Assembly (NCBI GenBank): GCA_045837725.1
Contig: JBEWZL010000076.1
Coordinates: forward strand, 310,001 to 374,000
Reading direction: 5' to 3'
DNA length: 64,000 nt
DNA from: Vermamoeba vermiformis
Taxonomy: Eukaryota
Shown: in pieces, positions 1-57,645 of the stretch
Position numbering within the stretch: the first letter of the stretch is position 1
Layout: the number at the start of each line of letters is the position of its first letter
The notes under the pieces: model-generated
Told to the model about the DNA's origin: nothing
Databases searched by the model: none
What the model saw: only the letters and a program-made list of their open reading frames with translations
Translations under genes and position numbers: made by a program

Positions 1-887
1 TTGGACCTCTTTGGGAGTGGGCTCTTTGTTGCCACGGAACACATGAGCACGGGTCATATGGGTGAAGGCGAGCTCGTATACTTGCACCTGACATTAAGAG
101 CTTTAGTTAATCATATTCAAGCCTAAGATAGCCGTGTACTTACGACGGTACCGTAGGCAATGAAACCGACAAACGCGTTTTGAGGCAACAATTCCAAGGT
201 TTGCACCAACGAGTCTTTCAAAGCTTGAAGCTCATCGGCACTAATGCACGTGTCTACCACGAACAAAAATACGGGTGGCAAGCTTCGTTGCTGTCTTGTC
301 AAAACGTATTCGATGGTTGTAACGTTGGGCAATAATTCTGCTGGGAGATTGCTCTCGGTCATGCCAGAGTAGTGCGGAGGGAATTGATTTCGTTGCCCAC
401 AGAATACGCACGTCCATAATTTAGCATTAATATCCACGGGGCTACATCCGAAATTGGTAAGTAAAAATATCTTTGCTCTTAGAAAATTAGCGTATTAATT
501 TTAGTAATTAAATTACATAGTGGTTGCGTGCTCAAAAAAAGCTTTGCACGGTTTAATATTAAAGTGGCGTAATAATTTTAAAAATAATTGAAAATTTTCT
601 TACGGTACCATTATCCATTTCATTAATTTATCGACGTAAAAAAATCATAATATGATCATATTAATTAAAATTGTCAATATTTACCAGTAAGGGTTTAAGC
701 AGATTTTGCACGTCTTGCATGTGACTGGATCATAACCAACGCGTGGAGCTGTTGTGCCACGTCTCAAAGGACTGTACATACAACCAATTGGAATGGTTGC
801 CTTGGTAGTTTCGGTTTTATTGCTGGGCCAGACGTTGAACGAGAAACGAGCTCCATCTCGCTCTTCAATCTGGTAAAAATAATCCAT
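1..887 (-). CDS. SEC23: Sec23 COPII coat subunit, paralogue A (5' part; continues beyond window start)
   Basis: Exons 887-685, 441-144 and 87-<1 with GT-AG introns give [21 protein letters not shown]...CKTCKICLNPYC...WTCVFCGQRNQFPPHY...PPVFLFVVDTC...VQVYELAF, the Sec23 zinc finger and trunk start. Confidence 0.96.
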
Positions 888-982
888 TTCGCCTTGACTG
901 ACACGAGTCGTGCTAGTGGTAGTGGTACTCGATCAGAGAAAAATAATTCAAATATGACCGACGTCGGTTTCAGCAACCTCCG

Positions 983-990
983 TGACGTCA
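983..990. promoter_or_regulatory. CRE-like palindrome TGACGTCA upstream of Sec23 A
   Basis: Perfect TGACGTCA about 96 nt upstream of the ATG at 887, next to the palindrome ACCGACGTCGGT (957-968). A similar TGACGTCG lies upstream of Sec23 B. Confidence 0.35.
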
Positions 991-1318
991 GATTCACCAG
1001 GGTCAATTTTCTTGACTAGTCAGCAAAATATTTATGGACCATTCAAATCTTTAGTGTAGCTTCGAACACTATGAAGAATCATCTTTAGTTTATTGACTAA
1101 ATGCAATAGGAAGCGAACGCCAAATCAACAAGCACCGCCAATTGCTTCACCGAATTTCTTTTACTTAAACTTTTGAATACAAAAACGTGCGTTATTGGTA
1201 GGAAACTCATTGTGCTGCAAAAGAATTTTGGATGTGTAGGTCAAAATTTAATTGGCTAATTATCTTTAATTGTTACTCCAGTATACTCGATTATTTTCGA
1301 TTAATACTTAATATTAAT

Positions 1319-4471: not shown

Positions 4472-5632
4472 TCAGATTGCATCCAGGTCCGCATAAAACA
4501 TGTCCTTCTTTAAATGACACACAATACCACTCGGACAACTTATGCGAGTTGCACCAATATCCAACGAGTCAAATTTTGAATAGAGCAATGCTCGATCAGC
4601 TTCATCCACCGTTGGCACGCACTCTTCGACAACCATTTTCAGCTCATCTAGTAAAGTAGCATAGATGAAAATATCGTAAATCTTTTCTAACGCTAGTATA
4701 CTCTTATAATAAGCAATTGCGCTGTCCAACAAAAGCATCGTAAGAGCTCTAGGCATTTTCTCGGTGGCTTGCCCACGAGCGGATGTGATTGTCTGGAGGT
4801 ACGTAGCTCGATCTTGGAACATTGGTATATCTAATGGTAATATACTATCCAATAGGTACTTGCTCAAAAAGCGGCACATGCGGCCATTTCCGTCTACGTA
4901 AGGGTGGATGTCGACAAAATGAAACTGCGTGAATGCAGCTAGAGCAAACAGGGCAAGTATTTTATCGATAGGTCGTTGATCGTAGTCTATTTTATCGATC
5001 TCTCCACTAATAGCAGTTACTATTACAGTCAGTGTATTCAGCGCTTCTTTGATTACAGAATGGTGAGGAAACAGATGCGCATCTGAAATAGCTTTGCCAT
5101 TGACTACTGATGGCTTAGCCTCGACACCTGTCCTTCGAAACTTGCCAGCGCTATCAATTACTCCTTGGAATAAGCAATGGTGCCATTCGTGAAGCAGATC
5201 TGTGCGTATCTGGCGCGCAACTAATTTTGCGGATGTGGTGCGCGTGCTTTTAATCAGCTCGTAAGTCTGCGTCGTTTCTTTGATATCGAGAGTATCTCCG
5301 ACTATTTCCCCCGTAATTACGAGCTCAGTTTCGTCTACAGAGTTCATTCCTGCAAATTCTATTTTGTTCGTTGTGTAGATCCGTTCCGAAGTTGCTCTCA
5401 GCTCCAATTTACTCCTTATTTCGTTTTCTTTGTAGTATTCATTATAATGTTTAACTAAATCGTGCAGTTCGGCTGCACGCTGCTTTGCTTCAAGATCTTC
5501 GATTGCGAATCCCAAGTAGAAGAACAACGCACGATCAATGCCGTAGCCACGGTCATAGAACCGCTGAGACAAGGTAAGAATATTACTGGCCTTGGGACCG
5601 TTATCTAAATTAGCGAGGATTCGTTGTTCCAT
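4472..5632 (-). CDS. Fic-domain protein (probable AMPylase), intronless, 386 aa
   Basis: Fic motif HPYVDGNGRMCR. The upstream IYTTNKIEFAG resembles the class II autoinhibitory (S/T)xxxE(G/N) helix. First ATG (MEQRILAN) at 5632. Confidence 0.92.
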   Translation of the reverse strand: MEQRILANLDNGPKASNILTLSQRFYDRGYGIDRALFFYLGFAIEDLEAKQRAAELHDLVKHYNEYYKENEIRSKLELRATSERIYTTNKIEFAGMNSVDETELVITGEIVGDTLDIKETTQTYELIKSTRTTSAKLVARQIRTDLLHEWHHCLFQGVIDSAGKFRRTGVEAKPSVVNGKAISDAHLFPHHSVIKEALNTLTVIVTAISGEIDKIDYDQRPIDKILALFALAAFTQFHFVDIHPYVDGNGRMCRFLSKYLLDSILPLDIPMFQDRATYLQTITSARGQATEKMPRALTMLLLDSAIAYYKSILALEKIYDIFIYATLLDELKMVVEECVPTVDEADRALLYSKFDSLDIGATRISCPSGIVCHLKKDMFYADLDAI

Positions 5633-5663
5633 CGTTGTTTTCAATTGCAACAATAATTTATTT

Positions 5664-6667
5664 TTAAAAGAGCGCAATAGCACCGACCAAAGCTGAGGCA
5701 GATAAGGTCAGTTTAATGGCATCGCTCGTCTTTGCAACGGGGGTGCTCTTAGGAGTACTTGTCGGCGTAGCATCGATGGGCTGGCTTGTTGGTTCGTTCG
5801 AAGCAGGTTCGGATGTGATCGGAGCAGCTTGAGGAGGAATCACTTGGCAACCGTTAGCACCTATACCGTCACCAGTATAGCCATCGGGACACGTGCAAGT
5901 AAAACTTGTGCCAGCGTTGAGGCAAGTAGCCAAGGGATCGCACGGATTTAAACTGCAAGCTGTAAAACAAAGTTATTTTTGGCACCAGCCGTTAAATTAA
6001 ATTTAAATTACTTACAATCGCAGTATTCGGTAACTCCGTCGGTTTTGTAAGTGTTATCAGGGCACCAAAGCTCGTACAAAATATTATCAACGGCTGTCCA
6101 GGCATTAGCCCAAAGAATTTTATGGATCGGCCTGTTTCCAACGAATCCTCGCATTTGGTAATTATTTTCACCAGCATTAATAGGGCAGTTAGTAGAACAA
6201 TCGAACATGGTACCATCAATGGCGTAGATGAAGAACGAGCAAGTGGTGCTTGCAAAGCTGTTTGTGTAGGCCACAAAGCTTCGAAGAGGAGGGTCGAAGA
6301 TTAATGCACATTCTGTAGTAGACAGGACAGTGCTCATATAAAAATTGGGAACTTCTGCGGAGTTAGCCCATGGATCCGACCCCTTCCAATATTCATCATT
6401 TATGTAGCTAAAATAACTGCCGCTACCAAGTTGGCAACCAGAGCCAGAAAAGGTAATTAAAGTACCGTTGGCGGTTAGATTCAAAGACCCGTCCACCGAC
6501 GTGTCCCAGGTAAAACTTTCCACCCATTCTTGATCGTCGAACGTAATTTTGCTGGTGAAGGTATTGCCCATATCGGACACTAAAACAAGACCATTGCTGC
6601 CCGGGCAATCCAGGCAGAAAGTGCCCGCCACTAGAATTCCAACCAGAAGTAATATTTTGAAATGCAT
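5664..6667 (-). CDS. Secreted surface protein with EGF-like domain, Ser/Thr/Pro stalk and probable GPI signal
   Basis: Signal peptide MHFKILLLVGILVAGTFC; intron 6015-5960; EGF pattern CSLNPCDPLATCLNAGTSFTCTCPDGYTGDG...C; hydrophobic C-terminus. Confidence 0.85.
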
Positions 6668-7220: not shown

Positions 7221-10459
<3,239 letters not shown>

Positions 10460-28660: not shown

Positions 28661-30455
28661 TTACAAAATTGAGAGGAATCCAATAACAAACATCGAGAGC
28701 GAGAGCGAGCTCCATACTGAGGTACCAGCACTGTGGTTATTATGTTGCGTAGTAGGAGGTAGGTCCGTAATAGGAGTGATTTGACCTGAGGAGGAATTAG
28801 TATTCGGTTGAGTTGCGTCTGGAGTCGTAGGACTAGCAAGGGGAATATTGCCAGTACTAGGAGCATTACCCGTACTCGGCACATTACCATCACTAGGACT
28901 ATTGCTAGTCGGTGAATTACTAGGTGTGGTCGTACTTGGAGTGCCCTCAGCAAGATCCGCAACTACTAATCGCAAGCGCCAGTAGCCTTCGATGAAATTG
29001 AGCGTGAGCGAGTGTTGGCCCGTGGTCAGCACGTCTGTAATGAACGCGTCGCTGTTTTGCCAGTCATTGTAATCGCCGCCCGCGTACAACAACATTGTTC
29101 CGACCTCATTTCCGTCAATTGTAAGGCGGATGTGACGGTTTTCTCCAGCCGGGGCATCTGACGGGAAGGCAGCACGTGCCACTAAAGAGTATTTGCCTTG
29201 TTGTTGAACGTTGATGTTGTATTGCAACCATTCAGTAGGCTCGATAAGACTGATGCACGCGCACTTGTATTGATAGTCGTCCGTGCAATTTGAAATGTCC
29301 ACGGCGTCGTTGCGATAAAATCCACCTTGATTGCCCGCAGTAGTGTCAGAGAATGTCGAATAGAATGCACCTTCAATGACACCAGGGATGTTGATTACGG
29401 ATGGTGGAGGCACGGGTAAAGGTTGAACACTGCCTGAGACAGGAGGTAATTCAGGGACTGGTGGACGTTCGTTGACTGGTGGAGGTGGGGCCCAGTCTCG
29501 TCTGCAAACGTCGTAATCGATAGGAGTCAACGCTGTAAGAGAAAAACAGCAGTTAGATCCGTAACTTTGGAAAAATAAATAAATATATCGTCGCCTAATT
29601 ATTATGAAGCTATTAAATATTCATACCTTCAGCAGGTAGTTCAGTATAGACGCCAAACATGAGACCCAAATAGTAGTACGCTGCTTTCGGCTGGCCGGAT
29701 CAAGCGACCTGAAGTTTTAAGTTGAGCGAAATCACACCCCACACCTACCCCCAAGCGAGTAGCACCTCCCAAACACGCGATGCCGAGCGACTTCTAGATG
29801 ATTGTCGATAAAATTCCTCGCTGCACGTCTCTATCATTCGTTGCGGATCAGTGTCTTGGTTAATCGACCACCATGCGCCCTAATCGTTTTCCTAATTAGA
29901 CTTTGTAATGTGTTTGAAATTTTTAAGACTTACATCCTGAGTTTGGAAAGAGTAGCCAGTGTCAGGCTTAGTAGCATGTTGAATATAGTCCCAGTTAGCA
30001 TGTAAGGCGTAGGTCAGCCATACATAGACCGGATTCTCACCGTTGTTCCAGCAAATGTCCAAAAACGCTCCGTGATCCCTGAACGAACCATCAGCAATTG
30101 CTATTATTTAAACAAATATATATTTTACTTACAATGGAGTGTCGGTATTAGGATACGCCAATAGTATCTGATAGACACGAAGGTTGTTCACGCCGACCGC
30201 TCGCATCAGGGCCAAATCCCGCGTGTGGACCACAGTGAAGTCCTTGTGGAAGACATCTCCCCATTCAGTATATTCGGCGGGAGTAGTACCTGGTGGTAGC
30301 GGACTATAGTTGACGCCTTTGACCGTAAAGGGCTCTCCGTTCAACTGGATTTGTCTGCCTTGTACAGTGAAAGTAGTCGTAGTCTGACTGCGCGCCAAGT
30401 GTAGAATAGCACTAAATAAATATAGTGCTACGAGTATATGCCGCCTTTGAACCAT
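28661..30455 (-). pseudogene. Secreted GH2/GH5-like TIM-barrel glycoside hydrolase + CBM6-like module + stalk/GPI, disrupted in the middle
   Basis: N-terminus FTVQGRQIQLNGEPFTVKGVNYSP...RDLALMRAVGVNNLRVY and barrel end QPKAAYYYL are present. Between them, 29700-29880 has stops and frameshifts and is too short for the catalytic core. CBM-like EWLQYNINV...GKYSLVARAA...GGDYNDWQ...LTTGQHSLTLNF. Confidence 0.65.
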
Positions 30456-31099
30456 TTGTTGCCGCTTGAACGATGTTGCTATTGAACTGAAGGTGCTCGC
30501 GAAAAAATTTTAAAGCTGCATTGAATTTCAATCAAAATCCTTTCTATAGAAAAATTTGAGGTAATTAATGCTGGTTTAATATACCCCTTCGAATCAATTA
30601 AATCTCTTCGGTCTGTTTGCATTATTTGGTCATTTTCATCGATTTTTTCCTAATTTAGAAACTGTCTAAATACGAAACCAACAGGCGAGGTGAATTTAAC
30701 AGAATATTGCGTGGTCTCAGTACAATTCAACAAATTGAGATTGATAAAACTGAAAAACCATGACTGAATATTATTGAACGATTTCTATAATTTACAGCGT
30801 GCATCTCAGAAGAAAATTGCAGGCTACAAAATAGATACGCACAATTTTTTGAATATTATAAGATGTGAATAAGGAAATCGAAATTTAACGAGTCGTTGCA
30901 ATAGAAGATTGGATTCTAAGCTCGGTACGAAGGAATCCGGCAACAGTCTCGAAAATAGAGTTATGATCGGTGTAAATAGGGAATAATATATTTAGGTAAG
31001 CGACTTTTCTTACCTTTATTCATTTAGCTAACTATTGTACATGGATTCGCCTCGCGCATCTCTGCGGCCAGTTGTTCGTTTCCTCGGATCTCGTTGAGC

Positions 31100-39785: not shown

Positions 39786-42227
39786 ATGGCGTCTCAATAC
39801 AAGGATCAAGCGCACCGTAGAATCGTTCAGTACTACCGACATCTTCTGCCTGAATTGTTTCAAGAACTAGATGCAGGCCTCGCGCCCAGTAAGTCTTACC
39901 AAAAAATAGTAAATCTTATTGCATTAGTATGCCACGTAGATTTGCGCCATACAGCGATTGAGTGCAGATGTCAAAATTAATTTTCTGAAAAGGCGCTTTA
40001 AAGTCTTGTTTACCTTATAATTAATAATCTGCCTATAATTATATCTGTATAATTCGTAATTAATTTAATGTATAATTATTTATTAATATTTGAATTCAGG
40101 CGATGTTTCTGGCAAAGATGCGGAACCGACCTTGGCTGACTATCAATTGGGTTGGGCTTCACAACCTGAAGTACGTATAACTTTTAATGCTTAAATAATA
40201 AAATTTATCGAATTTCGGATATCTTTTGGCGACTCTTATTCGAGTTGCAATTCGTTTGAATTTTCATCTGATCTTCGTCTTGTTATTTTTTCAGAATCAA
40301 ATTCGCTTTCAAGATATTTCTCTTAGCATACTTATATTAATAGTATATTATATTAGGAATTCGACTACGAGTTGCGAGTTACAGGCCGCATCCCGAAAGA
40401 ACTGAAAGGCACGTTGTTCAGAAACGGGCCTGGTTTGTTAGAAGTCTATGGAACTCCTTTAGTACATCCTATCGATGGCGATGGCATGGTAAATACATTA
40501 TTACTACAATTTAGAAATTTTAAAACGAGATCTGATTTTCGATCGAATTTTTTAGATCTGCTCGATTGCCATTGAGGACGGTAAAGCCCATTTCAAATCA
40601 AAATTCGTCAAGACTTCAGGCTATGTCACCGAGCAAACCAAGAAAAAAGCTGTTTTTAGAGGCATGATGGGAACTATCCCTGAAGGCGCGCAAAAACTTT
40701 CATACAAGTAAGCGGATCTCAATGATCAATTTTTGCAATAATTTATCGATACTTATGCTTGCCTTATTAGTTTTAAGAACCCTTCTAACACCAATGTGTT
40801 CGAATGGAACGGCAAATTGTTATCTTGTTGGGAATCCGGTTTGCCCTACGCACTGGATCCGGTCACACTTGAAACTGTCGGCAAAGGTAATACAATATAC
40901 TATAATATATTAACCTATACGTATATTATTTACTATCGTCGATGAATATTGGAGCTTCAGAATATGAATTTTGATTTTTTTGCTAACATGACACTTTTGA
41001 CAGATACCTTGGACGGGGCATTAGACGAATCAAAATGTTTAGGCGCGCATTTTAGAGTCGATCCCGTGACCAAACACTTGTTCGTGTTCAGTTTCAAGAT
41101 GATTCCTGGTAACCCAACGAGCTTCTTGTACTTCCACGAGTTCGATCAACAATACAAGTTGTTGAATCAATGGAAATTCCCCTTGGAAAATTACTTCTAT
41201 TGTAAGTCCTACGAGAATAATACTCGTACTGCAAATTACTTAATTTTTAATATTTATTTTTGCAAGGCCATGACTTTATGTTGACCGAGAACTATTTCAT
41301 CGTGCATCATTCACCGTTCTACAAGATGGACGATCAGATCTTGTTCAAGATGATCTCTGGTGAAGAATCTCCGGGCTCGATGGTCCGTTACCACTCGGAC
41401 ATGCCGTCGAGATTTTTGGTCATTGCACGCGACAAGAACTGCAATCCCATGGAAAAAATTCGTCAATTTGACATTCCTCCGTGCCATATCTATCATCACT
41501 GTAAGTATACTTCAATATACCTACGAGTCTTTGCAATAATTTCTGTAAGTTCACTCGGTCTAATCAAACAAATTTTCAGTGAACGGCTTTGAAGACCACG
41601 GCCACATTCACATCACGAGTGTATGTTTCGATGAAAATTTCACGATGGAATTTGAAGACAAAGTGGGCCTGTCCAACGGCTCCGTGAGTCCTGGCCGCGT
41701 GATCGACTTTGACCTGGACTTGACACAGATGCAAGCGCGGCACATTCAGGCTGATGACTGCAGCTGCGAGTTCCCGACCATTCACACTGGTTTGAACGGC
41801 AAGAACTGGCGCTTCGGCTATTTGATGGCCGCTGCAGCCCCCAACAAACCATTGCCTTATATGGAAGTCGTGAAATACGATCGTTGGAAACAACGCAGAC
41901 AAGTACGCTTTGACTTGCCTAATATAGTAATCGGCAATAACTAATTTCCTTATTTAGGTTTGGAGTGCCCGCAAAGAGTTCGGTGTCATTGGCGAGCCCA
42001 TTTTTATTCCGCGAGTGGATCCGTTGGAGTATGATCCAGCGCACGGTCCCGTTGACGAAGACGATGGCTGGGTGATGACGCAACTCTATGACGCGCGTAA
42101 TCACGTGACTCAATTCATCATCTTGGACGCTAAGAAGGTGGATGCAGGCCCCATTGCCAGATTGCATCTGGATCGTCATATTCCGTATGGATTCCACGGC
42201 ACTTTCTCGCACAATGTCTTTAAGTAA
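39786..42227 (+). CDS. Carotenoid cleavage dioxygenase (RPE65/ACO family)
   Basis: [82 protein letters not shown]: all four iron-binding His contexts present. Confidence 0.95.
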
Positions 42228-42441: not shown

Positions 42442-44372
42442 ATGGAAAAAAACGAGAAAGATTCGTGTGATATCGAAGAAGATCTGAAAGAAATTAATCA
42501 TATAGTATTTAACGAGCCTAATGATGATAAAAATATTCAATACGACTATAATGGACGGATCAAACTGCTTTCGTTTGGAAAATTAATGGAAAAACTAATT
42601 TCAGCATGTAAGTACTAATAACAGAAGCAGCACGTAAATATAATTATTATATTTTATAGTAATTAAACTTTAATACGCAGATCCAAGCTTCTCAAAATCG
42701 GTTTTGCTGACATACAGAGGGTTTCAAACTCCCAAAGTGCTTTTGTTAGCTCTAATTAAGAGGTAACATTCACAGATGATATATTTGTAGTGTTTACGTA
42801 ATCAGTAATATGATATTTAGATTTTTAACGGCGCCAGAGCAAGATCGACAGGTTGTTCGATTAAGGTATGCAATTTAACGTAAACAATGTTTTAATATTT
42901 TATTTTAGAGTATTATCAATCATTAAATTATGGATAACCAGCTTTTGGTCTGATTTTAACAAAGATCTGTCAGTACTTTTGCCGATTTTACAACGCTTTC
43001 TCGAAAAATGCTCCAAAAGCGATGAAAGTAGTATTAAATCGCTTAATACAGTGATTGATACTATTTCTGCCAAATTGGCGAATCAGGTAAGAGTGTTAAG
43101 CGGATATAGAATCTTAATTTGAAATCAAAAAGCACTCTCGACAATATGAAGCATAATGAATATAGCACCAATTAATTGACATCAATTAAAATAATTTTCT
43201 GTAGTTGTCGCTTTGTTCCAACCCAGATCCAGTCGATTATGCCAATCAAGCAAATTTACAATGCTCCATCCTCGAAGATGCGAATCCAATACAGCTACTT
43301 GATTATATTACACCTAAAGAGCTTGCTGAACAATTAACAATGTATGAATGGTCAACGTGGAGTAAGATCCAGCCGAGCGAGCTAGTAAATCTGGGTTGGA
43401 CGAAAAAGAACCGCCATGAAACCTCTCCTAATGTCCTTAAAACAATGTCCATTTTTAGTACAATATCTTCTTGGGTCGCAATGTCCATTTTGGTCCAAGA
43501 AGACTTGCATCACCGAATTTTACGAATGGAATACTGGATCTGGACAGCTCAGCGCTTGATCAAACTCAATAATTTCAATACTGCTTGTAACAAAACCAAG
43601 AGTTTGGTTAAGGGGTAAAATATGTGTTTATTGTAGTAAAATAATAAAAGAACGAATAAAACAGCGTTCGAATCGGTTTTGTGCGCTGAGTCACGTGATT
43701 TATTGCCTACGTGGCAATAAACACGAGTTTTGTTACACTGCTGTGGCCATAATGTCTGGTCTAATTAGAGGACCAGTCCAGCGCTTAACAAATACAAGAA
43801 AGGTACGGAAAACAACTTGGCACGCGTCATCCGTAACATTTTAAATTTAATTTTGTAGCGCTTTTGGACGCTTATAGATTTGACTTAAAATGACCAAATT
43901 AATAATACGATCTTAATGTATTTTCAATAGTTAAAAGCTAAATTAACCATCAGATCCTTAGAGTCTAAGCGAAGATTGTAGAAGGATCTTAGGAGAAATA
44001 GAACGGCTCTGTGATCACAAAGCATTACGAGACGAGTTAACCAACGCAACGCTGCCGTGCATTCCTTATTTGGGACTCTATTTGAATGACTTGACTTTTC
44101 TGTACGATACTGGCTATGATTACAATGGGCCTTTAATAGAGTGGAAAAAGCATGAAATGGCAGCAGAATTATTAACGACGCTGTTCTACTATCAGGAAGT
44201 TCCTTACACGTTCACATCCACCCCGCTCGTTCCACAAAAAATCGAGAATTATGAATTTTTCGGTGTAGAAGAATTACAACTTTGCAGTCAATATTTAGAG
44301 CCTGGAAACGGCAACAAACCTCAATGCTTATTTGATTATCAGGAAAAATTAAAAAATAAAAAAAAGGAATGA
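42442..44372 (+). CDS. RasGEF (REM + CDC25 domain), interrupted by a 152-bp insertion
   Basis: SFGKLMEKL, LLTYRGF, LRVLSIIKLWI, ELAEQLTMYE, WTK...SPNV, LNNFN[insertion]TAVAIMSGL...VQRL, PCIPYLGLYLNDLTFL. Confidence 0.88.
43586..43737. mobile_element. 152-bp TG...CA insertion with 11-bp TIR and 5-bp target-site duplication
   Basis: Ends TGTAACAAAAC / GTTTTGTTACA; CTGCT duplicated at 43581-43585 and 43738-43742; deleting the element plus one copy restores the in-frame RasGEF consensus. Confidence 0.9.
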
Positions 44373-44398
44373 TTTTCTATTAATACACTTCTATCCAT

Positions 44399-45540
44399 TT
44401 ATTTTCGCTTATCCTTTTCTTTATCAGTACCAGCGCTATGTTTCTTCCTTATTTTATCCAATCTATTGCCAGTCTCTACTGACGTAATGTTCTCCCAAAA
44501 ATTTCTGGATGCGCCTTTGTCGCTAATTCCCGCAATTTGCTTGTAATATTTTAAAATCTTATTTGGCGTATCTGCATCGATATATTCTTTCGGATTATTC
44601 GGGTTTTTGACGCGCAGGAAGTATCTGTCCGAATCATCGGGATCTTGCATCACCACGGCTGTGCCTTCGACTTTTTTGCCTTCCGCGCCTAATTTACATT
44701 TGAATTCTTTGCCGACTGCAAACTCCTCTTCGGTCATAATAAAATTAGTACTATACAATTAATAACAAAAGTATTCATAGCGAGATCTACCTTCATGTTT
44801 GCCGAGGTAGGCAAACGTTATTCCGTGACAACTGTTATCGCGACGACGTTTCTCTCGTGGTCCTTTAGCAGCTGGTGGTGAAATTTCATTTTGTTTTCTC
44901 TTCGTAGCGCCTTTGCTGTTTCTGCGCGGGGTTTCTGGGGACGGTTGATCGGGAATCCAATCCGGATCTTCGACGGTTTTGTTTTCTTCGGTCTTTGTTG
45001 CTGGTTCTGGGTACAATTTATCGCGCAAATCATCGGCTATATCACCCATATCAATTTTGTCGTCTTCTAGTACTTCTAATAATTCAGCGACGGTAATGTT
45101 TTTGGATTCGAGCTCTTCGATCAGTCGTTCGCATAAATAACCTGCGCCACCCATCATAGCATATTCAAAATATCGACTCTTTAAGTCTGCTTCTGTTATT
45201 TTAAACTTATGGCTCTTTTCAAAGGCGCATCCGAGCTCCCGCCAACTGTCGTGTTTTGCGATCTGGTGCGCTAGATTCGTCTTAATAGTCTTTGAAATGC
45301 CTTTTAAATATTCTATATTGCCTATACAATATGTATAAATTAGAATAAGGCCAGGACAAACAAAATTACTTTCGATCGAAAAATATCTACCGATGAATTT
45401 TAATTTACATCACACGTATATTTATGGCGTAAAATTATAGTAATAAATTAAAATTACTAAATAATTATCGCTTGATATGTTTTCCGGCTTCGATCGATCT
45501 GATCACCGAAACGTCCCATCCGCTTACCTTTTGCTGCCAT
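44399..45540 (-). CDS. Death-domain-like N-terminus + RAMA-like C-terminal domain protein
   Basis: Exons 45540-45528, 45321-44791, 44727-44399. N-terminal YLKGISKTIKTNLAHQIAKHDSWRELGCAF...RYFEY...ERLIEELESKNITVAELLEVLED...DIADDL; basic NLS-like linker; C-terminal DTPNKILKYYKQIAG...SRNFWENITSVETGNRLDKIRK. Confidence 0.7.
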
Positions 45541-45726: not shown

Positions 45727-47398
45727 TTACGAATAATAAGAAAATTTCCTTCGTTCTTCGGCCAATCTCTTCCGTTTCATATTCGTGTGGAGTTTATAGC
45801 CGCCATAAATAGGCCCGCCAATCACTAACGCCGGCACTGCCAATGCGAGGGCTAATACACCACCTACGACCATGCCCGTGCCTATCGCGACTTTCATTCC
45901 GAACCGCTTGCCAGGGCTGATCTGTTCCATGCGCTGGCCTTGCATGCCTGGACAGCCGAGCACGTTGTACAGCTGGAAGTGAGCGGAGGTGTACTTGCCG
46001 CCGCACAGCCAACAGAACTGGTACTGACAGTGCGTGCACGTCATGTGATTGCAGCCGCTGTTCTTCTCAATGGCAGCACGGCACTGCGGACACTGACGCG
46101 TGTTGTGTTTGCGCCACTGGTCGAAGGACTCGTCGGCGTGGCCGTTGACTTGTTTCCACTCGCGGTACTGCTCGCACGTGCCTTGGTGCCATTCCTCGTG
46201 GCACAAGAAACAGAACTCAAATTGACACCTGTCACAACGCATCTGACGGTACTCGGGGTCACCAATCATCGCGTTGCCACAGCTAGGCTTCGGACACCAC
46301 CGTGCATTGGGCTCTTGGCTCAGCGCTGCGTGCAGTGTGAAGTCCTCGTACTTGTGGAAATGTTCTGCCGACACTGCACGCTGGATCTGCTCACAAAATA
46401 TCAGCATCAAATCACTATTATACTGATATAGTATAATATAGGTTATTAGGTTATAATCGTACCTCTGTATAAGAAATTGTTTCGTCACATCTGGGATCCG
46501 GGCACGGAATGTCCAAGACTTGCTTCTCGACAATTTTGAGCTGCAAATATTCAGTGAAACAAGCATTGCAGTATAAATGTTTGCAATGTTTCAATTTGAT
46601 CATTTGAGACCGTGGAAATTCGTCGGTACAAATCGGGCATTCATGAACAGCATTCCAATCAGTATTATCCAGCTCTTCTTGGTCTACGACTAAATAAGAG
46701 TCGAATGTGTCTACTATTTCATCCCTATTTTCTTTCTTTTCGTTGTTATTGGCAAGATCCAGATCAAAGCTCGGATTTGGTTCGTTGACATCTGCGATAG
46801 ATTGTTTCTCGGGATAGTGCAAGTGGTGAATATGCGTGTTAACACGTTCGTGCTGCATGAGGAAATCGGTATCGATCAATTCCTGAAAAGGTATTAGAAT
46901 TTTTCTATTTTTCAAATAATAGGATCTTACGTCAGTAAAGATCCAAAAGAATAATTCAAAGTTTATCTTTATCGATATAACATATTTAAATAATTAGTCT
47001 TACGTGTGCCCAGCCATTTTGAAGCTCGTCGCTCTGTTTCTGAGACGGATTTCGATTGGTACCGTTTTCCAATTCTTTAGAGAAAGCAGGCTTTCTTGCC
47101 GATAATAGAGAAAATTGATAGTCTTCATCAATGGCATCAATTCTATCGTTCAACTCCAGTAAGATCGGCAACAGTTTCGAGTTTTCGATAAAGATCTCGA
47201 TGAGGACTTGAATGCGCTGCTTTACATCGCCGAGTTTCGATCCAAATACAGCAGTATTCTTAATACCATTATCGATATCTGATTTTAGCTCGTTAATTCG
47301 CTCTTTGAGCTGTTGAACTTCTGAATCCAACTCGAATTCCTAAAGTTTCGTTAAATCTCTGTACAAATACAAGTCGTATTGAAGTAACTTACTTCCAT
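45727..47398 (-). CDS. RBR E3 ubiquitin ligase with C-terminal TM helix and GAT-like N-terminus
   Basis: RING1 CPICTD...CKHLYCNAC...CPDPRC; IBR WCPKPSC...CDRC...FCFLCHEEWHQGTC; RING2 CPQCRAAIEKNSGCNHMTCTHCQYQFCWLC; hydrophobic segment near the C-terminus. Confidence 0.93.
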
Positions 47399-49651: not shown

Positions 49652-52299
49652 ATGCTCCACATCCTCACCACCGCATGCAAAAAGGTTTTCGGGGCAAGCC
49701 GACCATTCTCGGTTGGTTTTAAGAACTACAGGAATAAACTGCACAAAAAGAAGCGTAGTAATTTTAAATAATTATTTAGAATATGCGTTAATTTTTGCGC
49801 AGCCGAAATGTTTGTCAAAGGTGTCATCTCGCAGATTAACCGGTAAGAAATGCATTATATGGCCGTAAACGTTGCCAATTCCTCGCACATTATTTAATTA
49901 GACCGCTGGTTAAATTAACAATTTTTAGGGAATTAATTTACGAAAAACCGAAATCTGGATTCCAAATTCGTTCCTATTCGGTAAATCAACGCTCAGACGA
50001 TTTGTACAGCCAAAGAGGTACGAAGAATAACAATGTTCGAAAGATTTTAATCATAAGCAACAGATGAAGTACGCCATTGGCAGGCCGAACAAATTGCCGG
50101 CTGGATGCAACGCAACGCAAATCTATTGACAAGCCAAATCCAAGTAATCTTGGACCAGGCTATGACTGGCAGAGACATCTTAGCCAAAGAAGTGGTGTCG
50201 TTCCAAACACTTCATGCTGAGCATCCTAAAGCTACCCGCGAGTTGTGGGAAGCCTTTCAAAAGTTTCGGATGGGTCAGTACTGAAGTCACAAATGATCCT
50301 GTTGTTAACAATATTTGCAGCTTATATGATTCCCACTGAGCTACGTCCTGAACAAGCTTCATTCTCTCCTGACACCAACGTACTTGACATACCTTTTGTT
50401 GGCCGTGCTGCTTCAATTAAAAAAGCTCTTGTTGCTGTACAAACACACGCAAACACTGCCATCTACTCAAAGAGCAACAGCAATATTGATGAAATTCGTG
50501 TTGGAAACTCTTGTCTTTTTGCAGTTGGTGCACCTGGAATTGGCAAGACTAGATTTGGAGAAGAATTTCCACAACTGCTAGCTAAGCAAGCTACTGGCAA
50601 TCTGGAACAAAAGTTACAGAATGTTAGAACTGTACGACTCACATTCAAGGGTGGCAAAAACATTAGTGCTCAGGATACCAAATGGGAAGACTCTACAGAC
50701 CAAGTCAACTGGATTTTGACGTCCAGAGCAATTCATGCTGTTTACAACATCAACCAACCTTATAAAGACTGGGCACTGGAGCTTTCAAAATTGTTAGGCA
50801 ACGACTTGCCACAGCACTTCAACATGAACAAATTCATTGAAGAGTTGCATCGCAGAGATCAATCGGCAACAACAATTTATTTTCACTTAGATGAAGTTCA
50901 ACAGGTCAAACTACTACCACCAGTGGTTGGTGCAGATGTGATTAGAACACTCTCAACTCTCTATGCCAAGTACAACTCAGAAAAGCTCTTGACTCTACTG
51001 CTCTTCACTGGTACAATACTGTCTGATATTAAGTCTGTACTTGAGAAGCAACTTGGTGTTGGAAGCTCTGTTGACTTTCCTTTGGTTAGCTTGCCGATGG
51101 AGACACTAGAAGAAACGCAAATAAATGACATTATTTCCTCAATGAAGAGAGATGGCAAATTACCATGGTTGCGGGATGATTGGAATGAATCCACATCTTT
51201 TAAGAAGCTGGTGGCTTACCTTGGTGGAGTGCCACGTCTTCTGGAGCTGTTGTTCCTTGCTGGCACCATTACCTGTGACATAAACGACATGGCAACAATC
51301 TTGAGCACCTCAACTGAGGAGAGATACTCAATTAACACTGGCCAGCCTTCAGTCTACAATGCATGCTGCCTAGCTCTTTCTGGCAAGCAGTTTGAACTCA
51401 CTGATAAGCTTCCAAACGCCCCAGAACTGACAGTGGAGCAGCTATGCTCAAATGGCTATCTTTTCTTGGCTCCTGGTGGGCAGCTAAAGGTTCCATTTGT
51501 TTATGTTGGCTTGACAGTGTTGCCTGGAGACTTTGCTAAAGGAGATTTTGAAGATAAAATCACAGCCATGCGCCAAAAGCTTCTTACTCCAACTGGAACA
51601 TTGCTTTGGCAAGATTTTGAGGCATTCACATTGGTCTACTCTATGGTACGAGTCAAAGCCCTTCTACACCTCAAATACACAACATTCACAGTCAAAGATT
51701 GCTTCCATCATGCCCATACAATGTCCAAAAACATTGAACCATTGCAATTTAAACTGGCCGAACGAGATTATGTTGAACTTGGCAGTAGATGGCCAGAAAG
51801 TGGATGGCCAGTTTCCAGATTAAAAGGTCCAGTTAATGTGGAAGATATCCTTGACTCTGTATTCCTCAATGCTAGTGGAGCTTCATTTGATGGCTTTGAA
51901 TTTGTGGAACTGGCTGACAAACAAGAATATGTCATCTTTGCACACCAAAATAAGTACACAGCTGATGGTAAAACAGTTTTGTCATCAAAATCTATTGCTG
52001 AAGAAGCAGAGAAAGCACAAGCAGCATTTCAGAAATGGAAGAAGTCAGTGGAGCCTAATGACAAAAACTTGATGGCCCTAAAGGAAGCCACAAAGCAACT
52101 TATTCTCGTTATCTTCACTAATTGCAATGTAGTACTAGACCCTGTCCATCCTATGCCACATGAAAATATAATTGTTATCAACAATTACAAGCACTTTGGT
52201 CCATTCCAAGCTGTCACTAAATTTTTTCAAGTGCGAGATGACAAGGATGGAAAGAATGTGCTTGATGGATCAAAAACTAATTCTGTTCCCAGCCCTTGA
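49652..52299 (+). CDS. Crinkler/RHS (CR)-type protein: presequence + SAM header + P-loop NTPase + PD-(D/E)XK REase
   Basis: Five exons (49652-49755, 49803-49842, 49929-50017, 50064-50273, 50321-52299). SAM-like EVRHWQAEQIAGWMQ...AMTGRDIL; Walker A GAPGIGKT; Walker B YFHLDEVQ; LFTGT; LGGVPRLLE; nuclease WQDFE...NASGASFDG...HQNKYT. Confidence 0.85.
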
Positions 52300-52379: not shown

Positions 52380-53753
52380 CTATCTAAACTGTCCACTAGT
52401 TGAGTTTGTTTTCATCTTCATGTGGTTGGTGATACGACAGGTAAGAGCTGATTTGAGACAGCAGGGCTTGCACAACGAGTTCGAGCAATTGGCATTAATT
52501 GAACATCCGCAATTGCATTGATAGCTTCGTATTTCAATAAATCACTGATTAGTGTTATTTTCAGGCACTTTGTCATCTTCAGACACTGACATTTCAGGTT
52601 GTGGCATGGCTGTAAATGTTTTGAGATTTGTTCGTCACATACAAGTCATCAAATGTTGCCTTTGTCTCAGCTTTCCATAGATCTTGTAATAGAGGAGTTG
52701 CTATTACTGACAGCTCTTGGCCATTGAATCTCCGTAAGTACTTCTTGTTGTCATACATAAAGTGAAAACTGTCGCCTAAGACATTGGCACGAGGAAATGA
52801 CGTCATGCAGGCATTGCGCAGGGTTTGTTCAAAGCCAGCTAAGATGAATTCAGGTCGCCATTGATTTCGAGTACGTTTAAGCAAGAGACTGAAGAATGTG
52901 TTGTAAGTTTCTGCCGTTCGCTCTTCTGATATTAACCAAGCGACGCCCAGAGCATACTTGGCATCAGGAGGCTTGATTAAGAGTGATGCTAAGTATAATT
53001 CACCTTCAATGACATCAAAAGTACCATCGATAAATGCTGTACGACCAAATTTGACCAGGAGACTGACAGCGTCGGGATCCATGCAAACTATCAACACTTG
53101 GGGGTGAAGTATAATTGACAATACGAAGTTTCCATGCATCGATTTGATATTAAATAGGGCATCGGAGCTAGGAAAAGCTTTGTGGCGATGTCTGTAAGTC
53201 ATTTGCCGGATGTTGTTCCCAGAAGTTACATTCTTCGCTGAAATATCTTCTCCTGCATTATCCGCTTCGAGAACTAAGGTCTTGTGAATACGTGATGGAG
53301 GTACTCCGTGGTCTATCATTGCTTTTTTGGTTTTTTTTCCTGCGATAGGTAAGTGCTCGCTATCACCGCCAGGGCAGCTGTAATACTTGCGAATGACTGA
53401 TCGGGACTTATTCCCCTTGAGCTTTTTACTTCCGTAATTCCACCAATTGAAGTCCGACCTATCTAAAGTAATATTATTAATTTATGGTTATTTGGCTTAT
53501 TTAGTTGAAGACCGCTAATATTAATTTTAAAAGAAATCGAATAAATAATTCAAAATATATTGATACTTGAAATTAATACCTGAATCGGAGGGGGTTATGT
53601 ATCCTTGACTATCTTCATCACTACTAGATGCTATAGAGTGCGAAATACTATCGTGGACCGTGTCGCGATCTAGATGCTGATTCGCGAAATTAGTATTGAG
53701 CGCAGGAATGTAACTTTGCTAGTACCGATAAGCGCTGAGACGTCATTGTGCAT
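52380..53753 (-). mobile_element. Decayed Mutator (MULE) transposase gene with WRKY-like and SHI/LRP1-like zinc fingers
   Basis: Exons 53753-53726, 53669-53580, 53462-about 52630. DFNWWNYGSKKLKG...RKYYSC; MULE core AFIDGTF...ERTAETY...ILAGFE (second Asp lost)...GDSFHF; third catalytic region absent; out-of-frame tail CNCGCSINANCSNSLCKPCCLKSALTCRITNH. Confidence 0.8.
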
Positions 53754-56292: not shown

Positions 56293-57645
56293 CTAATTAG
56301 GAAATATTTTCTTCAGTAAAGGACCATAACCTAACAATTCGAATATGTCAAGCCAAATCTCGTGCGGTAGTAACTGCCATACAAAGCTATGTACGAAATT
56401 ATGCATTAATATCACTACGTTTCCGCTAGCAATTTTTTTGTTAATTCGACACTCTTCTTGGATCCGCTTCAATCCTCTGCTCGTCAATGAGCAATTAAAG
56501 AATTGTAAGGATAATATTAACCGATTGGTTTGGACTAAATTCAGCCATTGACCTTCTGATATTCCTGCGTTGAATGGTAACATGATCCGCTGCATGGATC
56601 TGCTTTGTACCAAGGCGTTGGAAATTGGCGTCAGATCCAGGCTGAAATTTTTGACGTCGAACCAGAGTTGCTGTAGTGTGTTATTCTGATGTATCATATT
56701 CGCAATGTCGTTAATGCCTCTTTGAGTTATATTATCATCGCCTAATGTTAGACTTCGTAGTGTTTGATTGACCCTCAGTGCGTGAGACAAATACTTGCAA
56801 AGCTTGTCGGAGATGCTTCCGTTGAAATTCGTGACTGTCAATTTAATCAATGAGGAATTATACTGCAGGATATTGCCCCATGACTTGCACGTCAAAGTGG
56901 ATGCTGCGGATCTAATCTCAAACGCGAGACTTGTGTATTGCAAGGGCTTCTTCTCCATGAGCTCTATCAATTGATCTGCTACATAGTCGTATCCTAATAA
57001 GGTTATTTGGTTCAGATGCTGATTTGCCATTATCCCGCGAATTACAAGTTGAGTGCATTCTTGCGACCGAACGTCTTCAGAATAGTAGTGTGCAAGCCTA
57101 AAGACCTTCAAGCTCGGATGATTCGCTAAAACATCGCGAATAGCTTCATAGTAGATCATACTAATTGAGTTATACAAGTGCAGATCCAAGCAAGTCAAGT
57201 TTGATTTGTTGCGTATGACGTCGCACAGGTCAGTGATTGAGTGGGGAGGGTAGCATGAAAAATTAAAACAGACTTCTTTAATCGCTGGATTAGTTTCTAA
57301 TTCTTGCAGGAAAATTGAACTCGGTTGCGGTTCTTTATCGCTACTCCAAATTTTAATTCTGTCGAATGGCTCAAAATTTCTTCTTGCGTTGATGACTGAG
57401 TCCGTATGATTATTGAGTAAACCTTCAAGAATTAATGACCGCGGCATCGGGAAATTGTTTCTTATTAGTTGCAATATAAAGTCTGTTGCATGGACGGTGT
57501 CGTAGGTACTCAAATAGTCTAGCAAAATGAACTTCTTCAACTGCTGGTCCGTCAAGTTAAATTTCTCCTGGATGCTGCGGTAACGTTTCAGATCCTGCTC
57601 TCCGAATTAGAATACAATTCGAAAACAATTATAATATCCTACCAT
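56293..57645 (-). CDS. RNI-like LRR protein with C-terminal F-box-like motif
   Basis: ATG-only exon 1, then one long exon; repeats NSSLIKLTV, NQTLRSLTLGDDNITQRG, NNTLQQLWF; ends LLPHEIWLDIFELLG. Confidence 0.8.

Follow-up and report, generated by a model that had tools for sequence, protein, structure and literature searches.

The window studied here is a 64,000-nucleotide stretch of Vermamoeba vermiformis DNA (GenBank assembly GCA_045837725.1, contig JBEWZL010000076.1, positions 310,001 to 374,000 of the forward strand). On its minus strand, from 45540 to 44399, we found a three-exon gene that is lineage-restricted and well conserved within its clade. Our preferred reading, held at about 50% probability, is that its 290-residue product is a nuclear protein combining an adaptor with a binder of DNA or chromatin, the back domain being most like RAMA with SAND as the next-nearest likeness. 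The helical front domain, most likely a module for protein–protein interaction, would then tether, recruit or assemble partners on chromatin, nuclear import would be mediated by a basic motif, and the back domain would bind double-stranded DNA (dsDNA) or nucleosomes, mostly via backbone contacts by analogy with the RAMA domains of MPND and CcrM. The nuclear localisation signal (NLS), the DNA binding, oligomerisation and any link to N6-methyladenine (6mA) are features that we infer. The firm result is more modest, namely a conserved, clade-restricted, nuclear-looking protein having domains that match no sequence profile.

In the original prediction the same locus was taken to encode an IRAK/Pelle-like death domain fused to a RAMA-like reader of DNA. 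The underlying observation was accurate, because 45540..44399 on the minus strand spans start codon to stop codon and every peptide cited is present in the translation (YLKGISKTIKTNLAHQIAKHDSWRELGCAFEKS, RYFEYAMMG, CERLIEELESKNITVAELLEVLED, DIADDL, KRKQ, REKRRR, TPNKILKYYKQIAG, SRNFWENI and GNRLDKIRK). The coding sequence comprises 873 nucleotides (nt) in three exons, with the following features, all on the minus strand:

45528..45540, minus strand: putative exon 1, ATG plus 10 nt (ATG GCA GCA AAA G, encoding MAAK plus the opening base of the next codon, for Gly), with the donor GTAAGC after it
45322..45527, minus strand: intron 1, 206 nt, GT..TATAG; conservation with the DNA of a metagenomic homologue, L001, begins exactly at the base after the TATAG acceptor
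44791..45321, minus strand: exon 2, with the helical front domain, an acidic and Pro-rich linker, the basic bipartite motif and the first conserved segment of the back domain (DNSCHGITFAYLGKHE)
45002..45316, minus strand: front domain, about 105 residues, all-helical, an unproven death-fold candidate
44840..44902, minus strand: basic bipartite motif KRKQ-x13-KRRR, a likely NLS, invariant in 6 of 6 aligned sequences
44728..44790, minus strand: intron 2, 63 nt, GTAGAT..CCGAAG
44399..44727, minus strand: exon 3, encoding the bulk of the RAMA/SAND-like alpha+beta back domain and a Lys-rich tail, with the TAA stop at 44401..44399
44398..44403, minus strand: AATAAA, a possible polyadenylation signal overlapping the stop codon

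Before splicing, the locus appears as two long open frames in the same frame with one TAA between them, having 216 codons (44759..45409) and 119 codons (44399..44758). Exon 2 offers no in-frame ATG ahead of residue 54, which calls for the 13-nt first exon, and 45540..45528 is likely to be the start of the gene. L001 has no donor site equivalent to that of exon 1, which is thus unconfirmed there. At positions 62-166 of L001, an ATG (ATGGCGAGAAAAA..) resembling exon 1 of the window shares the frame of exon 2, and no GT donor separates the two; L001 may lack the first intron, or the resemblance may be due to chance. The region has a eukaryotic style, with short GT-AG introns and about 40% G+C over the window, and judged by its relatives and by the selection acting on it the gene is a real one and not a chance open reading frame (ORF).

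The joining of the two halves was addressed by comparison with relatives, all of which derive from environmental or Logan assemblies. When the front half was used as query in a word-index search, 5 of 112 candidate proteins matched at E≤0.01, with 72–96% identity. These five were called as plain ORFs and continue into the intron, and their conservation ends right after LGK(H/N/Y)(E/D)G, which is the position of the donor G|GTAGAT. A scan of metagenomes confirmed one of 595 pattern-matching stretches, this being L001 (72% identity), whose back-half ORF (726..1052) is 87% identical in the back-half alignment and 91% identical over exon 3 alone. That ORF lies in another frame than the front half and contains no methionine, and therefore cannot be a gene of its own. 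When the DNA of the window and of L001 was aligned, conservation ended at the donor G|GTAGATCT and restarted at ..AAG|AGGA(G/A)TTTGC, with two indels, of 10 and 1 nt, between donor and acceptor. Among the pairs examined, a single shared donor and acceptor pair (G|GTAGAT and ..AAG|AGGA) restored the frame in both species; the homologous second introns are then 63 nt long in the window and 52 nt long in L001, and the exons meet at ..LGK(H/Y)E|EEFAVGKEFKC... Two other acceptors were rejected, TTTGCAG (75-nt intron) since it reads GCGG in L001 and is not conserved, and TATAG (40-nt intron) since it shifts the frame into a stop.

An exhaustive phmmer search with the back half against 1.84 billion representatives gave two matches at E≤0.001. 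One of them, P0007, is a third relative, in which a single 309-residue ORF spans both halves and 21 additional in-frame residues occupy the very place of the intron. The second match, to the 1272-residue repeat protein P0008 (E 5.9e-7), consisted of six stretches, each of about 34 residues, and was dropped as what we judge to be a chance match inflated by repeats. That the two halves belong to one gene, as had been predicted, is thus supported by comparative evidence, with a frame-restoring splice pair in two species and a single ORF in P0007. Further searches added no relatives: the back half gave no match from the one candidate in a word-index search at near lengths and a best score of 0.81 in the ESM Atlas (viral hypothetical proteins and domains of unknown function, below the usable level), the front half had no usable match in the ESM Atlas and none at E≤10 among 7,997 scored candidates of longer proteins (lengths 542–2000), and no paralogue of either domain was present within the window.

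Selection was assessed as the ratio of nonsynonymous to synonymous substitution rates (dN/dS) by the Nei–Gojobori method, comparing the window with L001:

Front domain: dN/dS 0.17, dS 0.88
Linker: dN/dS 0.24, dS 0.75
Back domain: dN/dS 0.046, dS 1.0

For the frame of exon 3 alone the value was 0.04. Because these values are low, both halves are real coding sequence under purifying selection, with the back domain being very strongly constrained. In the relatives, the 16 residues that close exon 2 (DNSCHGITF(A/S)YLGK..) hardly vary, and they are probably part of the back domain, which, at about 115 residues, would span intron 2. The front domain has 50 invariant columns in six sequences.

Between the two domains lies an acidic, proline-rich linker followed by KRKQ-x13-KRRR, in which K139, R140, K141 and Q142 as well as K156, R157, R158 and R159 are invariant in all six aligned sequences. 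The net charge is −5 for the front domain, −3 for the linker, +7 for the basic motif and +4 for the back domain. The motif fits the classical bipartite NLS pattern, with a slightly long spacer, and is probably a nuclear localisation signal. This invariant motif speaks for a protein residing in the nucleus more than for a cytosolic, AIM2-like sensor of DNA, and the earlier proposal of an AIM2-like sensor of foreign or methylated DNA is not supported.

For structural comparisons, AlphaFold2 (AF2) models of both halves were built from shallow alignments of 6 and 8 close relatives, with the back half being modelled as a read-through that included the 21-residue intron-encoded insert and one X. The resulting back-half model showed two long antiparallel strands, three short strands and three helices. 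In a structure search independent of Foldseek, this model was compared with 48,161 representative chains, and the following were found among the top six:

Rank 1: 7ydt_A, mouse MPND, root-mean-square deviation (rmsd) 3.2, 85 of 92 residues aligned, score 4.7
Rank 2: 6pbd_B, CcrM residues 270-356, score 3.7
Rank 4: 1ufn, SAND domain, score 3.2
Rank 6: 1oqj, GMEB1 SAND domain, score 2.9

The RAMA domain of MPND corresponds to residues 62-156 of 7YDT and is described as having three helices, two long antiparallel strands and four short strands; according to the same 2023 MPND paper, CcrM was until then the sole published RAMA structure (PMC9963953). As the RAMA fold had been named beforehand, from motifs, and then came up at ranks 1 and 2 of 48,161, there is moderate support for a back domain with a RAMA-like, or RAMA/SAND-like, fold, to which we give slightly better than even odds. 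SAND had been our own first idea from motifs, but since the RAMA chains rank above SAND in the structure search it was demoted to a rival.

Several results weigh against the preferred reading and should be set beside these matches. The back-half model is mediocre, with a predicted local distance difference test score (pLDDT) of 60–72 over residues 62-157. The best Foldseek match to it had E 0.6, and RAMA chains were absent both from the 50 Foldseek matches listed and from the 50 listed after a re-alignment of 995 of the top 1000 Foldseek chains, so that the structural evidence for the fold of this domain is weak in absolute terms. At the sequence level, Pfam at E≤10 gave no RAMA (PF18755) or SAND (PF01342) match in any of the three back-domain members, in the pieces from the window or in the intron read-through, and phmmer and hmmsearch comparisons of the back half with the PDB yielded nothing relevant. 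We also used the Pfam model to find 33 RAMA loci in prokaryote genomes (3 of 5 genomes, then 85 of 301) and extracted 32 CcrM-type RAMA domains, leaving out L124 that had no anchor motif. Against these 32, hhalign gave the back-domain alignment a probability of 0.3% (exon 3 alone) or 1.8% (spliced), and a hidden Markov model built from them scored about 1 bit on the back domain. For the front domain, the AF2 model (pLDDT 48, five helices) was unusable for deciding its fold, and a Pfam-A hmmscan at E≤10 matched none of six members to Death, CARD, Sp100/HSR or any other death-fold family. Both domains escape all sequence profiles tried, and the predicted RAMA-like back half has weak yet specific backing from structure, with MPND and CcrM as the top two chains, and none from sequence. 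Likeness to RAMA motifs could be seen by eye, in an (S/T)P(S/N) helix start, N-x-W and a terminal G-x-x-L-D-x-(I/L)-R, and is without statistical support. Weak, unrelated back-half matches were dropped (PHROGs phrog_8256, E 0.1; Cactin_mid, E 0.082; HicA_toxin, E 0.039).

The front domain had been said to match the death domain of IRAK4 helix for helix. Its best Pfam match was MC7 (E 0.08, in 3 of 6 members), which was dropped as insignificant, and the NCBIfam match LCxxNW for the front half (E 0.19) was weak and unrelated. Sequence and profile searches of the PDB with this domain gave nothing relevant, the profile search returning a single unrelated match at E 0.53. With the front model, Foldseek gave 128 matches at E≤10, of which the best 32 were listed; among these 32, death domains made up four and were the sole recurring family:

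Rank 1: 3mop_G, a Myddosome chain, which we take to be IRAK4; insignificant
Rank 10: TRADD death domain; insignificant
Rank 17: MALT1 death domain; insignificant
Rank 18: IRAK4 death domain; insignificant

All four had E 2.1–3.6, a probability ≤0.10 and an rmsd of 13–15 Å, on a model with pLDDT 48. They seem to reflect similarity in sequence or local structure and not a folded death domain, and are a hint in agreement with the original prediction, nothing beyond that. A prediction of a complex of two copies of the front domain scored 0.01, with a pLDDT of the partner under 50. A death fold is therefore a possible assignment for this domain, in which the recurrence of death domains among the listed matches, insignificant as they are, speaks for the claim and the Pfam result and the poor model, with five helices and not six, speak against it. 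Compared with the death domains of IRAK4, TRADD and MALT1, the front domain is alike in being all-helical with about 100 residues and in the recurrence just described, and differs in its insignificant matches, in having no Pfam Death match and in its five modelled helices.

Other readings of the locus were weighed against that of a nuclear adaptor and chromatin binder. The least unlikely of them holds that the protein is lineage-specific with both domains belonging to no described family, so that a helical bundle and a small alpha+beta domain would resemble the matched structures fortuitously; it would, however, rarely happen by chance that both top chains of 48,161 belonged to RAMA, a fold predicted beforehand, and the inventory of secondary structure agrees with the published description of that domain. 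We find it harder to accept a minimal SP100/AIRE-like regulator of transcription or chromatin, with a CARD/HSR-type front domain for homo-oligomerisation and a divergent SAND domain at the back. Although SAND structures were found within the top six, they were outranked by RAMA chains, the death-fold rows listed for the front domain were death domains and not CARDs, and Pfam gave no SAND or Sp100/HSR match at E≤10, nor any match to HSR/CARD, SAND, PHD or bromodomain in the protein pieces from the window, the read-through or the relatives. Moreover, RNFW stands where the SAND signature, KDWK, would be expected, its placement being our own judgement.

Less probable still is the sensor originally proposed, where an IRAK/Pelle-type death domain would be combined with a RAMA reader of 6mA so that foreign or methylated DNA is sensed and a death-fold filament is nucleated in the manner of AIM2. 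It can draw on the back half matching RAMA best in structure, on the four death-domain rows of 32 and on one study in which the RAMA domain of MPND pulled down 6mA DNA (PMC6591016). Yet those four rows have the poor statistics given above, no Death-family Pfam match was seen in any of six members, the invariant basic motif suggests a constitutively nuclear protein, and none of the 70 window ORFs scanned has a Death, TIR, NACHT or caspase domain, leaving no death-fold partner among them. The boldest version, in which a true death fold and a true RAMA domain make a nuclear reader of adenine-methylated or otherwise non-self DNA that nucleates a death-fold signalling assembly in a eukaryote other than a vertebrate, as the first such fusion and an independent use of the SP100/AIRE/AIM2 logic, we consider a long shot. 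Very improbable, finally, is that the locus holds two separate genes or a truncated one, with the 40-nt TATAG intron ending the protein five residues after ..GKHE and the 112-codon ORF from ATG 44737 being translated alone or not at all. The TATAG acceptor does resemble that of intron 1, and the back-half ORF of the window happens to begin with ATG, but the homologous ORF of L001 has no Met and lies in another frame, conservation starts at EEFAVG and not at the ATG of the window, the exon-3 frame has the low dN/dS given above, and exon 2 ends in a segment that hardly varies, as it should if it belongs to the same domain.

The gene has the following neighbours:

43205..44369, plus strand: RasGEF gene
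45730..46993, minus strand: RBR (RING-IBR-RING) E3 ligase gene
40946..41941, plus strand: RPE65-type oxygenase gene

Downstream in L001 there is likewise an RPE65-like ORF, and local synteny is therefore partly kept. The adjacent RBR ligase has ARIH2/ARIH1 as the closest among solved structures (E 1.6e-18), and its C-terminus has a hydrophobic segment rich in Gly, Ala and Val with the look of a membrane anchor. Elsewhere in the window, a tRNA-Pro (AGG) gene at 9366-9437 (plus strand) overlaps the end of one Sec23 ORF piece (8966-9376) and precedes the next (9705-10055), apparently lying inside an intron of the Sec23 gene. The Sec23 beta-sandwich piece scored 75.9 bits with human Sec23A versus 53.7 bits with yeast SEC23. 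Two ORFs, 126-494 (minus strand) and 7679-8050 (plus strand), carry the same Sec23/Sec24 zinc-finger and trunk-start domains in opposite orientation about 7 kb apart, which may represent an inverted partial duplication of the 5′ end of Sec23. A single open frame of 689 codons at 50230-52296 (plus strand) has a P-loop, GAPGIGKT, and a weak match to AAA_22 alone (E 1.4e-4), and is adjoined by a MULE transposase ORF at 52597-53481 (minus strand). Also seen on the minus strand were a 437-codon single-exon ORF with a leucine-rich-repeat look and no Pfam match at E≤0.001 (56296-57606), a Fic/DOC-domain ORF (4475-5707), a CBM6/CBM35 carbohydrate-binding ORF with a Ser/Thr/Pro-rich tail (28664-29620) and a weak GH72 glucanosyltransferase piece (30132-30509).

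With regards to known systems, AIM2 and IFI16 have the architecture PYD plus HIN-200, and the protein described here would resemble them, if its front domain is a death fold, in having a death fold and a DNA-binding module within one small protein. It differs from them in that its putative DNA binder is not an OB-fold HIN domain and in the basic bipartite motif suggesting nuclear residence. From the RAMA domains of MPND (7YDT) and CcrM (6PBD), the back domain differs in sequence, with no similarity detected to either Pfam RAMA or the 32 CcrM-type sequences, and the 290-residue protein in having no JAB/MPN deubiquitinase or methyltransferase partner domain. The eukaryotic RAMA partners reported by Iyer et al. 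(2016) include JAB deubiquitinases, Dam, ankyrin, SET, PHD, Chromo, Tudor, Bromo, BRCT, ARID, MBD, PARP zinc finger, AT-hook and RING, and no death-like or front-type helical partner is among the eukaryotic architectures given in the text of that paper (PMC4738411). Should the back domain be a RAMA domain, a helical adaptor joined to RAMA without an enzyme would be a eukaryotic architecture absent from the list in that text. The protein would then also be a compact and tractable one for asking what eukaryotic RAMA domains read. The RAMA domain of MPND binds dsDNA independently of sequence as well as histones, and in MPND and CcrM the contact with DNA is made largely via the backbone (PMC9963953). 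Reading of 6mA by MPND itself is disputed, as the structural study reported 6mA to give no significant increase in binding by its RAMA domain (PMC9963953), as opposed to the pull-down mentioned above.

The closest known layout is that of SP100 and AIRE, CARD plus SAND, with both domain assignments in the present protein being uncertain. The SP100 family and AIRE have an N-terminal HSR/CARD domain for homo-oligomerisation together with the DNA-binding SAND domain, and the order is the same here, with an N-terminal helical domain (of the death-fold superfamily in SP100 and AIRE), a linker and a small alpha+beta domain, DNA-binding in SP100 and AIRE and putatively so here (PMC4548144). The present protein is much shorter, its 290 residues leaving no room for a PHD finger or bromodomain, and its back domain ranks RAMA above SAND. 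Since SP100 and AIRE already combine HSR/CARD with SAND, the general layout is not new, and the statement that no described protein has this pairing was too strong in spirit. A full-text literature search pairing the RAMA domain with the death domain found no report of such a fusion. If the front domain is indeed a death fold, the pairing of such a fold with a small DNA binder, as in SP100, AIRE and AIM2, would have arisen again outside vertebrates.
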